Source: Eledone cirrhosa
Taxonomy: Eukaryota
NCBI GenBank assembly: GCA_964016885.1
Contig: OZ024748.1
Coordinates: 3,348,001 to 3,412,000, forward strand
Length of the DNA stretch: 64,000 bases
Direction of reading: 5' to 3'
The translations under genes and the position numbers were made by a program. Below the pieces are notes generated by a model, which made no database searches, was not told the origin of the DNA, and was given only the letters and a program-made list of their open reading frames with translations. Shown piece after piece: positions 3,603 through 48,137 of this stretch; the stretch's first letter is position 1, and every line of letters begins with the position of its first letter.

Positions 3603-3669
3603 TATTTTATTAGACATATTTCAGAGGTACTGAGTTAAGTTCAACAGTACGGCCTCATCAGATAAAATA
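3603..3669 (-). ncRNA. Type I hammerhead ribozyme (stem III mismatch)
   Basis: TATTTTAT-CTGATGA-GGCCGTACTG..CAGTACCTCT-GAAA-TATGTC-TA-ATAAAATA. Confidence 0.75.
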
Positions 3670-3954
3670 AGATGATGCATGACATATCCTGACATAGGAG
3701 ATGGTTAAGATGCAGTGAGGGTAGACTACCAGGACTGGATCTTAACCATCTACCAGTGTCACAATACTTTCACACTAATAAACCTACTCAATCATCATTG
3801 TGCCCCATCTCCCCCCTCCTACTACTCCTCAGGTCCACCTCTCCCCTACTCCTCACCACTAACAACAACAACAACAACAATATCAACAAGATTAATATAA
3901 TGTCCTCTGTTTTCTGTATTCCTTTATGCTGTCATACATAAGTGGCCTTTAACA

Positions 3955-4370
3955 CCTCCACCACCACCTTTATCACCACACCTATTATCATAACCACCAC
4001 CACCACCGCCACCACCACTGCCACCACCACCAATGCCACCACCGCCACCATCACACCACCACCGCCATCACCACCACCACCACCACCAATGCCACTGCTA
4101 CCACCACCAATGCCACCACCGCCACCATGCCACCACCGCCACCACCACCACTGCCACCAATGCCACCACCACCACCACCGCCACCATCACACCACCACCG
4201 CCGCCACCGCCACCAATGCCACTGCTACCACCACCACCACCACACCACTGCCACCACCGCCACCACCACACCACTGCCACCACCGCCACCACCACCACCA
4301 CCGCCACTGCCACCACCACCACCAATGCCACCACCACCGCCACCATCACACCACCACCGCCGCCACCAGA
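3955..4370. repeat. (CCA)n-derived trinucleotide repeat
   Basis: Degenerate CAC/CCA tract giving poly-P/T/H ORFs. Confidence 0.95.
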
Positions 4371-4522
4371 ATGTAAGAATGGCAAGGCCACTGGTCATTG
4401 TTAGCGGTCAATAAAATAAAGTACCAGTAATACACTGGGGAGACTTAATTGACGTTCCCCTCCCGCAAAAATGGTTGGCCTTGTGCCTAAATTAAAAACC
4501 ATAATTATTATTATTATTATTA

Positions 4523-4745
4523 GGGGCGGTGGATTGGCAGTATCAGTAGAGGGTCGGACGCCATGCTTTGCAGCATAGAGTTACGGCCCTTTACAGTCTG
4601 AGTTCAAATCCTGCTGAGGTTAGCTTTGCCTTCATCCTTACAAAGTGAATAAAATAAAGTACCAGTCATGTACTAGGGTTGAATTAATCGACTTTCCCCT
4701 CCCCCAAAATTGCTGGCCTTGTGCTTAAAGTAGAAACAATTATTA
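4523..4745 (+). mobile_element. tRNA-derived Meta-like SINE
   Basis: Box A TGGCAGTATCAG, box B GTTCAAATCC, central GCCTTCATCCTT...AAAATAAAGTACCAG, (ATT)n tail; more than 15 copies or fragments in window. Confidence 0.85.
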
Positions 4746-43240: not shown

Positions 43241-43884
43241 AGTCCTGGGTTCAATCAGAGGTAGTCACAATAAGTAAGGTACTCAATACATTGGTATTGG
43301 GTATGATTTCTTTTGAATGAAACAGTTCTAGTCCTGTATAAGCCATTTCTATATTAAACACACACACACACACACACACACACACACACACACACACACA
43401 TATGTGGTGTACACATAATTAGTCAGCATGTAAATAAGGTTGAATAAAGATGCACGTGTATGAGTGTGTGTGTTTGCGCACGCACCTGTGTGTGTTTGCG
43501 CGCGCACCTGTGTGTGTGTTTGCGCATGCACCTGTGTGTGTGTGTTTGCGCACGCACCTGTGTGTGTGTGTTTGCGCACGCACCTGTGTGTGTGTGTGTG
43601 TTTGCGCACGCACCTGTGTGTGTGTGTGTGTGTGTGTGTTTGCGCACGCACCTGTGTGTGTGTTTGCGCACGCACCTGTGTGTGTTTAAGGTAAAAGTGA
43701 AACTGATGAGAGGAAAAGACAAAGTATGTTGTTCCTACCTGAATATTTTCATGAGATTTTATATATCAGGAAAATACTGAACCTAACCCATTAGTACACA
43801 CACATTATATGTATGTATGTATGTATGTATGTATGTGTGTATGTGTGTATGTGTGTGTGTGTGTGTGTGTGTGTGTGTGTGTGT

Positions 43885-44100
43885 AGAGGTTATATTTAAT
43901 TTGTTGGGATTCAACAAGCTTAAACATTTTTATAACTGATATAAAGCACTCAACAGGTTAGTGGAGTAAATATACAATATATTAATATATTACTAAATGG
44001 AAACTATATTTATAAAACCATATTTATTTTATTATACATATTTCAAGGGCCACCAAGGCAAATTATGGTGCGCTTTCAACCATAGTTTCCGTTTAGTAAT
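43885..44100 (-). mobile_element. Copy of the 38925-39340 hammerhead element, broken at the catalytic core and folded back
   Basis: Matches 38940-39020 up to TTTCA, then inverted ATAGTTTCCGTTTAGTAAT. Confidence 0.75.
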
Positions 44101-47100
44101 ATATATATATATATATATATATATATATATATATATATATATATATATATATCAAAATTCAATAGACAAACAGATACAATTCCTTATTAGTTTCATGCTT
44201 GTTTGAAAAAAGAGAAGGAATGTTTCAACGTATCGTACGTTAGTTCTTCATCAAGAATATATATATACGTGTGTGTACTCCTGCCTGTGTGTCTCTCTCT
44301 TTCTCTCTGTGAGTGTATGTATATAGTCTTCGGTGTGTGTGTTTCTCTCTCTCTCTCTCTCTGTTAGTCTATGTATATAGTCTTCTGTCTCTATGTGTGT
44401 GTGTGTGTGTGTGTGTGTGTGTGTGTGTGTGTGTGTGTGTGGGTGTGTGTGTGTGTGTGTCCATCCTTCGAAATTTAAAAGTTTGACAAAGTTCCTCTCC
44501 AAAGTTTATATAAACAAGTGGGATGTCAGTTGAGGGATGAGGCACCGTTACTGATCACAATAACAAAGTTTGGATAAACCTTTTAAGAAGGAGAAAAATA
44601 TAAGAAAACGGAAGACAAAACCATGACAATAACGGAAGACCATTTTGACAATATAAATCTGTTGCTGTAAGTGGTTCTACGTGAGTTGAGAATATTTAAA
44701 AAAAAAAAACGAAAATTATGGAAGTTATACGAGAGGAAACAAGACAGAAAAATATATTTCTGATCGAGTTTAAATAAGAAGATAATGATTTTAAAAAAAG
44801 TAATTCGATTTATTATTAATTCTATTCTATAACTAAAATATGTTGTGTTTTAAGTACATTCAGATATAGTAGGGGTAAAAAATAAAACAACTTTATAAAT
44901 ATATCGTGCACTATTGTCTGTCTTAAATGACAGTTCTTTCTCAACTGAAATATATTAAGATGATATATTGTTTAATTACGTTGATTGTCACACACGTAGA
45001 CATTATTGTTTCTACAATAATATTAACTAATATTACTAGCTACTAGTAATACTAACATTAACTGATGGAACCGTATTAAAACAGCTACACGATCATTAAT
45101 ATATATATTAGTAATATTAACTGTTTCTACTTTTACCCAGTGCATTACTGGTACTTTATTTTATCGACGCCGTAAGGATGAAAGGCAAAGTTAACCTCGG
45201 CAGGATTTACTCATTTACTGGGTGTTTTTTTTATCTCAAGTGTAATGACAGGTCCTGCAGAGTTGTTATCGCCTTAAACTCTTAAATTCTTTGCTTTGTA
45301 AACAAACTGTAACTATGTAATATCTCTCTCTCTCTCTCTCTCTCTCTCTCTCTCTCTCTCTCTCTCTCTCTCTCTCTCTCTCTCTCTCTATATATATATA
45401 TATATATATATATATATATATATATATATATATATATTGAAAGATAGAGAGAGGAGAGGAGATTTCAAAGGCTTTTTACTATAAAGCAAAGAACCGCAAG
45501 GCATGAAGTGTAATTATAAATCGGAGTATAATCCCCTTGTGGCGGAAAAGTGTGTGTGTGTGTGTGTCGTATATAACTTGTATATAAGTTACGTAGACAC
45601 ACAGACACACACACGCGCACCTGTGTGTTTATTTACTATTTCAAGACTTTAAAAAAAGTGTTCGGTGAATAAGTCGCATATAGGTTTTTAGCATCGCCGG
45701 GTTTTTTTTTTTTATTAAGTAAAATAAATAAATAATCAAAGATAAAAAATTAAATAATTGCGACTTATCTGCTAAACATCTACAGTATGTCTAAGAAAGA
45801 AAAAAAAAATAGGGTTTTTTATAATTGAATGAAAATTACTTTTGTTGCATCATACAAACTCTAGAAGCTAAATCATTCCTGATTTTTTTTACAAAATATA
45901 AAAGCTTTTCTTTTTTTGTGTATCCCCATAAGAAAAAACAATATATATACTATATATATATATAGTATTCATTAGGAATGTAAATTCATTTAGAAATTAA
46001 AAATAAGAAACGAACACAGAAAAGAAAATAGGAATTAAGAAAAAGTTTACCTCTTTCGTCTTTTATATATATTTATATATATATATATATATATATATAT
46101 TAAACTAAAAAAGAAAAACGATAGCGATTCTCTACCATACAGCCTATGAGCAAAGTAAGTAACTCGTACATGAATAAAATAAATTACTATATATAATATA
46201 TATATACATTTGTATGTATGTATGTATGTATGTATGTATGTATGTGTGTTCTAAAAGAAAAAAATATCAGATGAGATTTAATTTTAGGCCAGAGTAACAA
46301 ACAATAGAGTTGATTCTAGAGATAGCATGACACTAGCAGTGGAGGAAATGTTTAAAATTAATCAATATAAACAGCTATGTATCATACACTAAAATAATAA
46401 TAATGATAGTAGTGGTGATGGTGGTAGCAGTAATGGTAGTAGTAGTAGTAGTAGTAGTAGTAGTAGCAGTAGTAATGGTAGTAGTAATAGTAATGGTAGT
46501 AGTAATAATAATGGTAGTAGCAGTAGTAGTAGTAGCAGTAGTAGTAGTAGTAGTAGTAGCAGCTGTAGTAGTAATAGCAGTAGTAGTGGTAGTAGTAGCA
46601 GTAGTAGTGGTAGCAGTAGTAGTAGCAATGGTAGTAGTAGTAGTGGTAGTCGTAGTAGTAGTAGTGGTAGTCGTAGTAGTGGTAGTAGTAGTAGTAGCAG
46701 TAGTAGTAGCAGTCATGGTGTTTAATAGTGATGCTGTTTCCAACGCTATTAGTTATCACTGGAGATGAAACAATGACTAGAACTAAACTAGAAAGCTTCT
46801 ATCTCAGCAAATCATGCAAATTAGAGAAAAATAGAGAAATCGACAAAATTTAATTAAATTAAATTAATAATAATAATTAATAATAATAATAAATATATGC
46901 AAAAATTTCTCCATTGTTTTTTGTTTCATTCTTCTCAGTAAATATATAAATAAAAATAAAGAATATTTACACACACACACATTCATATATATATGTATAT
47001 ACACACATTCATATATATAAATATATATGTATATACACACACACATGTATATATATATATATATATATACACACATATTCATGTATATATATATATATAT

Positions 47101-48018
47101 ATATATACCCACATTCATATGCACACAAAACCTTGTTTACATTCATACATACACATACATATACAAACAGTCATACATACATACATTCATATATACACAT
47201 GCATAGTAATACATACATATATACAGAGACACACATGCATATACATTCACATACACACATACATACATACGTACGTACATACATACACACACACATCTAT
47301 ACAGACAGACACATATATAGTCATAGTAACATACATACATTCATGCAATCACACACACATACACAGTCACACACATTCATACATACAGGCACATATAGTC
47401 ACACACACACATACATATATATATACAATCATATACACATCCATACATACACATATACACACACACACATACATATCCACATCGATACATATATATAGTC
47501 AGACACACATCCATATATAAATACAGTCACACACACACACATCCATATATATATATAGACACACACACACATCCATATATAAATACAGTCACACACACAC
47601 ACATCCATATATAAATACAGTCACACACACACACACATAAATATATATATACACACACACACAGTCACATATGGAAAAGCTAAGAACATAAATATCTGAA
47701 TTTATCAATAACTAAAATGCTGTAGTACCATCAGTGAAGACATTGCTTACACTACTAATAAAACTCACTAAAATCTATAACTACACACATATATATATAT
47801 ATATATATATATATATATATATATATAGGTGCCTCAGCATGGCCTCAGTCGGTTGGCTGGAACGTGTAAAAGAGGAGTACACACATACATATATATATAT
47901 ATATATATACACACACACACATGTGTATGAACATGCATAATATATATATATATATATTAGGTACTAAATTAACAATGAAAATAAAAACAACAGTCAAGTT
48001 ATTTTACCTATTCATATC

Positions 48019-48137
48019 ATTGTTTTACGATCGTTTCGGAGGGTTGATCATATTGTCTGATCTATAGCAGTTATATAACTCTATACTATCAGACCTCATA
48101 TATAGGTTCGATCAGACCCTCTTCTTCGGAAAACAAT
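48019..48137 (-). ncRNA. Hammerhead with large branched stem II (core CCGAAGA variant)
   Basis: ATTGTTTT-CCGAAGA-A-GAGGGT..ACCCTC-C-GAAA-CGATCG-TA-AAACAAT. Confidence 0.7.

Follow-up and report, generated by a model that had tools for sequence, protein, structure and literature searches.

Type I hammerhead motifs in an Eledone cirrhosa sequence as predicted ends of Hydra-type Penelope-like elements and a retrozyme

Eleven type I hammerhead motifs in a 64,000-nucleotide stretch of Eledone cirrhosa DNA (hereafter the window) very probably comprise five truncated 3' ends of Penelope-like elements (PLEs), one retrozyme, and five older relatives, copied by internal priming of reverse transcriptase (RT). 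At all 11 positions, CUGANGA (or CCGAAGA) is followed by stem II, GAAA, stem III, and UH and is closed by stem I, with nine motifs on the minus strand and two on the plus strand. These motifs (families F1 to F10) and other related features of the window are as follows.

1788..1835, plus: hammerhead core of a repeated family (15 matches among the loci collected), with a perfect stem II and only ~2 bp of local stem I
3160..3305, plus: F6 fragment without ribozyme, stopping at the long 3' end (81% over 150 nt)
3454..3761, minus: F1, predicted truncated 3' end of a Hydra-type PLE; hammerhead 3603–3669, predicted cut after 3611, long 3' end 3454 before (TA)n, small 5' fold-back 3690–3761; ORF link in loci L154, L155, L159, and L160
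8384..8560, minus: F9, old dispersed repeat; hammerhead 8419–8500, stem II region of 51 nt; relatives 73–86% identical
14937..15010, minus: decayed hammerhead of another repeated family, with GAGA replacing GAAA
16976..17125, minus: F8, old dispersed repeat; hammerhead 16997–17077, stem II region of 52 nt; relatives 80–88% identical, some in head-to-head pairs
18430..18610, minus: F7, predicted truncated 3' end of a Hydra-type PLE; hammerhead 18460–18547, stem II region of 61 nt
20000..20293, minus: F6, partial copy of a putative 420-nt noncoding retrozyme unit; hammerhead 20250–20292 with short stem II, predicted cut after 20256, distal stem I gone through 5' truncation
35280..35553, two arms: F4 fold-back insertion; decayed hammerheads 35372–35437 (minus) and 35449–35544 (plus); long arm 74% identical to the F5 end
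35663..35805, two arms: F11 insertion, decayed
38729..38906, minus: F3, predicted truncated 3' end of a Hydra-type PLE, very young; hammerhead 38775–38845; 158 nt identical to at least 44 other places
38925..39347, two arms: F2 insertion; minus arm with hammerhead 38968–39032 and short end 38925; plus arm 39231–39347 with long end and without ribozyme
39358..39540, plus: F5, predicted truncated 3' end of a Hydra-type PLE; hammerhead 39381–39440, stem III of 3 bp; (TA)n follows the long end at 39540
40317..40419, plus: F11 copy
40463..40639, two arms: F11 insertion; minus arm with type I core at 40587, 3-bp stem II, long stem III loop, predicted cut after 40544
42246..42416, two arms: F11 insertion
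43248..43357, two arms: F11 insertion
43882..44078, minus: F2-related copy cut off inside the catalytic core (motif 43990), with long end
47975..48137, minus: F10; hammerhead 48019–48137, CCGAAGA core, stem II region of 85 nt (93 nt in most relatives), fold z = -4.3

A descriptor of the hammerhead fold was passed by nine of the 11 sites (8419, 16997, 18460, 20250, 35372, 35449, 38775, 38968, and 39381), whereas dinucleotide shuffles (n = 100, 200-nt blocks) gave 0.16 matches on average and never more than 2; the reversed sequence gave none. A stricter descriptor retained eight sites (35372 was dropped) versus 0.11 in shuffles. The motif at 3603 fails because of a single stem III mismatch that is absent from most of its relatives, and that at 48019 because of a family-wide C at core position 4 and one extra stem I base, with 13 of 29 relatives of the latter motif passing. 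For each of nine motifs searched, the genome yielded at least 39 further matches. A sequence-only reading of the window had described about a dozen type I hammerheads with a closing stem I, which these counts bear out; shuffled sequence, the control it proposed, gave no similar counts. The stem I pairs it quoted are correct, and the motifs it placed exist, with 18447 corrected to 18460 and 35450 to 35449. The Rfam search that it also proposed returned nothing at the gathering threshold and no hammerhead family among the best 150 of 408 matches at E ≤ 10. A check with Rfam alone would therefore have overlooked these motifs; the long stem II is the likely cause, and Rfam misses the whole class of PLE-type hammerheads seen here. 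The single, dense family of that reading did not hold up in either respect. At least nine families are represented among the listed motifs; 3603, 38775, and 38968 have a common stem I, 3603 matches 38968 at ~70%, and 35372 is a relative of 39381. The density, eight matches in 64 kb versus 30 in 360 kb (36 stretches taken across the whole genome; P = 0.18), is not special, the genome-wide figure being about one motif per 12–14 kb, with an estimated total of ~2 × 10^5.

All of the motifs are predicted to be self-cleaving type I hammerheads, and the complete arrangement (CUGANGA...GAAA...UH, three-way junction, open helix I) was seen in nine of the 11. The catalytic core is constant across 26 families, with position 7 being free and U4-to-C the only other change. 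Stem I differs in sequence between families and keeps its pairing, in families preselected by the descriptor. When 45 distinct F2-type copies were gathered through their 3' flank, pairing held in 96.5% of cells compared with 36–54% in slid controls, and three of nine stem II pairs changed on both sides (39 cells versus 13.8 in shuffles), related copies and related families being non-independent in all such structure statistics. Both-side changes were found in none of the eight stem I pairs within F2, and two of five whole-structure measures failed to beat shuffles for these copies. Stem III is fully self-complementary in 20 of the 26 families, compared with 4.0 expected, and duplex energies were better than those of hairpins for all 10 stem III regions, which suggests that the motifs may act as dimers. 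Folded singly, 12 of 13 motifs were little or no better than shuffles (z of +1.2 to -2.1), with 48019 alone reaching -4.3, and minimum-energy folds of single motifs were often without stem III.

Five motifs (3603, 18460, 38775, 38968, and 39381) are joined by continuous sequence to ORFs for RT and GIY-YIG nuclease elsewhere, and thus appear to be 5'-truncated 3' ends (pseudo-LTRs) of separate PLE families. These partner ORFs, found as the sequence-only reading had advised by looking beyond the window, support its proposal of a Penelope-type ribozyme-bearing system. Its statement that the window holds no PLE RT/GIY-YIG ORF also stands: none was detected by tblastn, a Hydra profile HMM, or Pfam, the last covering 150 of the 188 nonrepetitive frames. 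Continuity from motif to ORF was found for F1 in the four loci listed above (L154 being a partial tandem), and L194 contains a complete hammerhead-ORF-hammerhead unit of F2 that spans 3,951 bp. The GIY-YIG end lies ~0.93 kb upstream of the hammerhead for F3 (L393, L394) and ~1.3 kb upstream for F7 (L373, L374, L380, L391), with the ORF start located downstream of the F7 hammerhead in L389; the F5 sequence continues into an RT/GIY-YIG ORF in L269/L395. The layout is that of PLEs, with a single ORF in which RT precedes GIY-YIG, hammerhead pseudo-LTRs, and partial tandems (L194 for F2, L154 for F1, and L395 for F5), as are the 5' truncation, inverted 5' copies, and optional tail (68–102 nt). The ORFs to which window families were connected contain frameshifts or stops or are partial. 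Among the loci collected, no partner ORF was found for F4, F6, F8, F9, F10, or F11; the motifs at 35372/35449, 8419, 16997, and 48019 likely represent older families of the same kind.

The linked ORFs carry motifs of the Hydra clade as defined in the relevant passages of PMC8557442, the assignment to this clade being based on motif content. The CxCx5C linker before the nuclease is present in the ORFs of F1, F2, F3, F5, and F7, as well as in 115 of 120 database homologs of a related 713-aa frame. CxxC precedes the catalytic E in F1, F3, F5, and F7, CxH follows the catalytic N in F2, F3, F5, and F7, and DKT replaces DKG in F1, F2, and F5, with the F3 and F7 copies examined not including that region. 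The translated NH2-terminal RWK-type site reads RWK in F5, RWP in F2, and RWN in F7 and is a stop in the F1 copy. The ORFs linked to window motifs lack the CCHH motif inside GIY-YIG that marks the Neptune or Penelope/Poseidon clade. The two-cysteine form of GIY-YIG was found only in a Poseidon-type frame and in none of the 120 homologs of the 713-aa frame. Pfam returned nothing for three Hydra-type frames scanned. The genome harbors at least seven Hydra-type families.

The sequence-only reading had also allowed for retrozymes, and one motif, 20250, is indeed joined by continuous sequence to a noncoding tandem unit. On the basis of its sequence, F6 appears to be a non-LTR retrozyme with a 420-nt unit. 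Tandem arrays with a period of 420–432 nt were found in L227, L228, L231, L235, L255, and L397–L399. The unit has a GC content of 38%, its longest ATG frame is 49 aa on the ribozyme strand and 97 aa antisense, and no PLE ORF was continuous with it in the loci collected. Its predicted circular fold (z = -8.9) is compatible with a circular RNA. F6 likely borrows a PLE enzyme.

The 3' ends of the copies, counted from the predicted cut site, fall at two preferred positions in each family: +55 (29 of 49) and +157 (11) for F1, +51 (16 of 42) and +144 (13) for F2, +39 (22 of 57) and +107/109 (26) for F5, and +43 to +50 (13 of 26) and +137 to +142 (8) for F7. Copies were ranked by similarity to the queries, and the ends seen are therefore a biased sample. 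(TA)n follows 147 of 174 3' ends. Of 42 head-to-head pairs, 37 join a long end to a short one (P = 2 × 10^-7 at 0.5), and the retrozyme, with ends at +217 and +273, shows the same combination in nine of 12 resolvable two-armed loci. This rule likely records how the elements are pasted in. With a probability that we put at slightly below one-half, a single coupled reaction generates the two-armed insertions of Hydra-type PLEs and the retrozyme: each of the two subunits of an RT-nuclease dimer would prime a different strand of the cut (TA)n site, at its own fixed RNA position, such that a long end is always paired with a short one. Such coupled priming, if it occurs, would explain the PLE tail and inverted 5' copy as a single event and would directly show that the PLE machinery copies the 420-nt retrozyme.

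A full element would be ~4 kb in length, with its hammerhead near the 3' end and ~200 nt between the point at which the preceding repeat is cut and the start of the ORF, and would be transcribed through its own end. The GIY-YIG nuclease would nick (TA)n DNA, and RT would start internally, at one of two fixed sites slightly 3' of the ribozyme, and copy across the cleavage site, usually stopping within a few hundred bases; most copies would therefore keep little except the ribozyme. Both DNA strands would often be primed, one per start site, to yield head-to-head arms that differ in their ends, one being long and the other short. The templates would be continuous across the cut site, having been either uncut or religated, and the weak palindromic stem III would hold single ribozymes mostly inactive and permit cutting once two copies pair. 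The dispersed copies would be by-products rather than host genes. In the in vitro experiments described in PMC11167929, the RT of a Poseidon PLE started at two sites, both strands were extended, and uncleaved RNA served for insertion.

It is rather unlikely, given a core conserved in 26 families with differing stems, that the ribozymes, although genuine, have lost or never had catalytic activity and that the fold is instead a protein-binding or RT-positioning signal. The sequence of each copy indicates reverse transcription across the cut site, which such a signal would accommodate, as it would the unaffected insertion in vitro of Poseidon catalytic mutants and the lack of RNA reads ending at the site in the relevant part of PMC11167929, together with the low activity of minimal PLE hammerheads described in PMC4209133; the Poseidon ribozyme did, however, cleave in the presence of protein (PMC11167929, same part). 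We consider it quite improbable that most motifs are independent retrozymes, or small circular RNAs, with PLE ORFs as chance neighbors because all target (TA)n. That account does apply to F6; in addition, no ORF was found for F8, F9, F10, or F11 among the loci collected, and chance adjacency occurs, with the GIY-YIG fragment beside an F1 copy in L007 belonging to a different PLE that has its own 3' UTR in other loci examined. The ORF-hammerhead junctions are, however, common to independent loci for F1, F2, F3, and F7 (89–96% over 1.1–3.2 kb), a direct hammerhead-ORF junction was seen for F5, and no short tandem period was seen in copies of F5, F7, F8, F9, or F10.

There is very little prospect that the motifs form a host-selected regulatory array, such as intronic ribozymes of a one-strand gene. 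The predominance of the minus strand would fit such an array, but it has a two-sided binomial P of 0.065, and the 10 kb on the left contains two plus and one minus motifs. The density is also that of the genome at large, the copies range from family-identical to decayed, and Pfam revealed no host exon in 150 of 188 frames, with a single weak NDUF_B7 match below cut-off. Chance matches in AT-rich, microsatellite-rich DNA are still less credible. A bare CTGANGA-N5-35-GAAA pattern is expected ~2 times by chance, and eight other CTGANGA sites tested had no relatives among the loci collected; the full descriptor (nine versus 0.16, or eight versus 0.11 in its stricter form) and the further genome matches of the nine motifs searched refute this explanation.

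The preferred reading, that of truncated PLE ends with one retrozyme, is in large part known biology. The pairing of hammerheads with PLEs and an octopus Hydra element are already published, and the families described here are new members. In the relevant sections of Craig et al. 2021 (PMC8557442), Hydra-clade C-terminal EN+ PLEs, including Hydra-1_Obim of Octopus bimaculoides, share with the present families RT followed by GIY-YIG without CCHH, the CxCx5C linker, DKT, an RWK-type motif (RWK itself in F5), CxxC/CxH around the catalytic E and N, (TA)n targets, a hammerhead near the 3' end, inverted 5'-truncated copies, and an optional tail. Compared with those families, the F2 unit is longer (3,951 bp versus 1.1–3.0 kb, the <3-kb length being stated there as a tendency and not a strict rule), stem II regions are not short, being as long as 61 nt in F7 and 99 nt in L029 and L157, tails measure 68–102 nt rather than 30–40 nt, stem III is mostly an even-length palindrome, 3' UTRs are 0.9–2.1 kb, and the mollusc Hydra families number at least seven versus one. 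Natural type I hammerheads with stem II regions of 60–100 nt thus exist. Dispersed, highly variable hammerheads from truncated PLEs were described by Cervera and de la Peña 2014 (PMC4209133), in whose account, as here, each genome has many variable families, mostly as single motifs with close opposite-strand pairs, longer helix II, palindromic helix III, and predicted dimer cleavage. The minimal motifs of that account number 2,000–9,000 per genome, compared with our estimate of ~2 × 10^5, and most motifs here retain a helix III region of 4–8 nt.

According to the portions of the metazoan retrozyme literature compared (Cervera and de la Peña 2020, PMC7229834; Li et al. bioRxiv 10.64898/2026.07.22.740005), retrozyme units are 150–450 nt with <50% GC and one type I hammerhead each; F6 conforms to this description, as it does in its short helix II, one-pair helix III under a palindromic tetraloop, occurrence as monomers, dimers, and multimers, and strongly self-paired predicted circle. 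PLE-type fixed ends and a two-armed structure, as seen for F6, are not described for retrozymes in those portions, in which a mobilizer of animal retrozymes is only proposed; F6 bears a PLE-like footprint. The axolotl, with a far larger genome, has 126,247 motifs in the same sources, and the present estimate exceeds any genome count in the hammerhead literature compared. Poseidon PAc of Anolis, as presented in the relevant part of Frangieh et al. 2024 (PMC11167929), belongs to a different clade and resembles the present elements in its internal RT start 3' of the hammerhead, two tail-defining sites, AT-rich targets, and extension of both strands, whereas no difference in start site between strands was seen there in vitro, in contrast to the long-plus-short pairing of our genomic copies. 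Given that the basic finding is known biology, its value lies in its use as a test bed for the role of the hammerhead in PLE transposition, with young families (one of them having dozens of identical copies), fixed ends, the strong pairing rule, and a retrozyme bearing the same footprint, which together provide exact substrates for cleavage and priming assays.

The sequence-only reading missed the motifs at 1794, 14937, and 43990 as well as the five F11 insertions between 35663 and 43357. F11 is an abundant family in which stem III has a long loop.

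The motifs in the window are hammerheads derived from Penelope-like elements (PLEs) together with one non-LTR retrozyme, and as such are already known biology; their cleavage is predicted. We refer to families by window site as F1 (3603), F2 (38968), F3 (38775), F4 (35372/35449), F5 (39381), F6 (20250), F7 (18460), F8 (16997), F9 (8419) and F10 (48019), with F11 being a family overlooked in the earlier, sequence-only reading. At all 11 sites listed in that reading, the hammerhead core is present and enclosed by stem I. A descriptor demanding the core, UH, a stem I of at least 4 bp, a folding stem II and a stem III of at least 2 pairs including the conserved A-U accepted nine of these sites, compared with a mean of 0.16 and no more than 2 across 100 dinucleotide shuffles made block by block, the control that the reading had proposed. 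The two sites that failed, 3603 and 48019, are each one change away from intact relatives. Rfam hammerhead models gave no match in the window at Rfam thresholds. When folded in isolation, 12 of 13 motifs were not clearly more stable than shuffles, with stem III often remaining unformed, and the case therefore stands instead on motif, repetition and covariation. A strand bias of the motifs was considered and was not significant. A separate hammerhead core with a perfect stem II is present at 1788-1835 on the forward strand; local stem I conservation in its family is limited to about 2 bp, and the core could be a short-helix type I hammerhead or a rearranged form.

Covariation was examined in 46 F2-type copies, namely the window copy and 45 of the 59 collected via the 3' flank; the other 14 were excluded for a truncation or deletion within the motif or for unrelated upstream sequence. 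In this set 96.5% of cells pair, compared with 36-54% in slid controls, and counts of changed pairs and of pair types do not exceed those in shuffles. The stems had been described as covarying. Within F2 this holds for stem II, in which three pairs are altered on both sides (39 cells versus 13.8 in shuffles), but not for stem I, where variation is confined to one side. Full self-complementarity of the stem III region was seen in 20 of 26 families versus 4.0 expected, a statistic that overstates independence because the families are related; the descriptor itself demands no stem III self-complementarity beyond the closing pair. Intermolecular duplexes of these regions were computed to be energetically favorable and hairpins were not. 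The architecture is the same as that of hammerheads with a palindromic stem III for which, according to PMC4209133, dimeric cleavage has been proposed.

A genome search with nine window motifs returned at least 39 further matches for each among the best 40 candidates scored, with identities ranging from 100% (F3) down to 73-86% (F9). Descriptor matches across all loci formed 46 clusters, 26 of which contain at least two distinct sequences, so that the single dispersed family envisaged from the sequence is refuted. In a sample of 36 stretches of 10 kb (360 kb) taken at round coordinates on large contigs of the 3.0-Gb assembly, the descriptor gave 26 matches, rising to 30 when stem III was allowed to be longer, versus 1.55 in shuffles. 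Scaled from this sample, the bootstrap interval for the genome is 1.5-3.7x10^5 hammerheads, an estimate that omits weak-stem families such as F11, the core pattern of which occurs nine times in the same 360 kb. The window had also been thought unusually dense in motifs; with eight matches it is typical of the genome sample (P=0.18), and we rejected this notion.

As the sequence-only reading had noted, the window contains no PLE ORF, as judged by tblastn, a Hydra profile and Pfam. Its suggestion of a PLE retroelement or retrozyme system was right: the genome-wide search of flanks that it recommended linked ORFs encoding RT and GIY-YIG domains to five families (F1, F2, F3, F5 and F7), and F6 forms a tandem unit. 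For F1, upstream walking placed the ORF end 1.9-2.1 kb ahead of the ribozyme and revealed a partial tandem at locus L154. For F2, locus L194 holds the complete arrangement hammerhead-ORF-hammerhead, 3,951 bp in length. The nuclease end lies approximately 0.93 kb before the hammerhead for F3 (L393, L394) and 1.3 kb before it for F7 (four loci), and the 3' end of F5 passes directly into the ORF start (L269/L395). In L007, a GIY-YIG fragment neighboring an F1 copy was rejected as the F1 partner because the other 29 loci of this protein (one unparsed) enter a different 3' UTR; it belongs to a Poseidon-type element. A Poseidon-type PLE (L134, L135, L044-L073), with 9,441 first-look candidates, has RVT_1 and GIY-YIG domains in a 670-aa frame; at its 3' end is a half-core made up of GAAA and a palindrome, with no CUGANGA match to the descriptor. 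For F6, F8, F9 and F10, tblastn and the Hydra profile applied to 24-30 loci each and to the wider loci L392 and L396 yielded scattered fragments and no ORF continuous with the motif. The same two methods likewise found no motif-continuous ORF for F4, a family without a genome search of its own.

Taken together, the linked ORFs carry a CxCx5C linker, DKT, CxxC and CxH and do not have the two cysteines inside GIY-YIG, a combination given as diagnostic for the Hydra clade in PMC8557442. We thus assign them putatively to this clade, by motifs in place of a tree; the label Neptune is ruled out by the clade definitions published there. The supplement of the same paper includes a single octopus family, Hydra-1_Obim, which has a canonical hammerhead and targets (TA)n. 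A Hydra-type family not observed in the window (L161-L163; G000:C3:228.48 Mb, C5:45.64 Mb and C1:255.84 Mb) has open frames of 713-726 aa and its own hammerhead approximately 1.9 kb past the stop. Its 150 scored copies are 98-100% identical in the nuclease region, there are 65,424 first-look candidates, and it has probably been active recently. Of 8,000 database sequences scored against a related 713-aa frame, 1,176 were homologues, with no informative name among the 120 listed.

In every ORF-linked family, the ends fall preferentially at two distances from the predicted cut (after UH), giving a long and a short end, and (TA)n then follows in 147 of 174 cases. Among 42 head-to-head pairs, 37 combine one long and one short end, four are short and short, and one is long and long (one locus being counted twice), an excess with P=2e-7. 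An example of such an insertion in the window is:

38925-39347: two-armed F2 insertion, one long and one short end

Beyond these observed ends, their pairing and the ORF links, we propose a mechanism in which reverse transcription would be primed internally, possibly on both strands in one event, and cleavage might depend on dimers; any circular intermediate is likewise putative. Reverse transcription would start just past the ribozyme and mostly stop early, with every insertion keeping the ribozyme, which would explain the hammerhead density without a host function. A PLE protein in vitro is described in PMC11167929 as starting reverse transcription at two internal sites, extending both strands and using uncleaved RNA. 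This was the only report that we found on the tail, both strands and inverted copies, and subscription literature or Repbase may already describe the end-pairing rule. On cephalopod or Hydra-clade hammerheads, PMC8557442 was the only relevant report found; Repbase, subscription literature and bioRxiv supplements may cover these families. The hammerhead load, the number of families, the long stem II, the long tails and the end-pairing rule may be new.

F6 is a non-LTR retrozyme. Sequence downstream of the 20250 motif recurs upstream within the unit, which occurs in the genome as monomers, dimers and arrays with a period of 420-432 nt. The unit has 38% GC and lacks long frames on the ribozyme strand; as a circle it is predicted to fold far more stably than shuffles (z=-8.9). 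[quoted passage not shown] The window copy begins 38 nt before the predicted cut site and is missing the distal stem I segment. F6 also ends at two distances, +217 and +273, with a long and a short end combined at nine of 12 resolvable loci; two further loci, with a second arm having neither end, were excluded. Units of an array differ at 12-23 of 420 positions, save for recent block duplications (0, 1, 5 and 6 differences), and these differences neither show nor exclude copying round one circle. The F6 array at L399:4047-10244 has two head-to-head arms with later block duplications of approximately 1.67 kb.

F4 and the F5 end are related, at 74% identity. Copies of F8, F9 and F10 are dispersed, some in head-to-head pairs. 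A family whose stem III and 3' flank resemble those of F10, and whose stem II region measures 99 nt, lies behind a Hydra-type ORF at L029 and L157. Approximately 1 kb past such an ORF, at L029:4400-4533, L157:279-414 and L160:9045-9188, type I hammerheads have a stem II region of 99-105 nt. Relatives of the 48019 motif are 87-94% identical, except for an inverted, 99% identical copy approximately 11.5 kb left of the window (L287; G000:C8:3336390), probably a local duplication. F11 has five insertions in the window (35663-43357); there and at L014, L037, L076, L207, L216 and L247, its head-to-head junction often lies no more than approximately 25 nt from the catalytic core, as would be expected had copying stopped inside the ribozyme. 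A single (TA)n tract at 38729-39540 holds three different PLE families back to back within 0.8 kb, and such nesting was frequent among loci fetched from the genome.

The window (G000:C8:3348001-3412000), which in composition gives the impression of a cephalopod genome, has a GC content of 27-43% and is rich in microsatellites and minisatellites, the latter including:

15302-16163 (72-nt unit), 48519-50440 and 52773-53318: three related arrays with one common motif
24637-25685: 39-nt unit x27
33921-34395: 64-nt unit x7.4

Matches to miRNAs in Rfam were microsatellite artefacts, and a weak NDUF_B7 match at 17793-17978, below cut-off, was taken as chance. No long non-repetitive ORF is present apart from a LINE zinc-finger fragment at 63162-63662; this 3' fragment (weak zf-RVT match) is 74% identical to a related one at 8595-8867. 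A near-perfect inverted repeat of 180 nt at 19315-19496, which matches Rfam MIR9563 below threshold, is probably a small DNA transposon or fold-back element.
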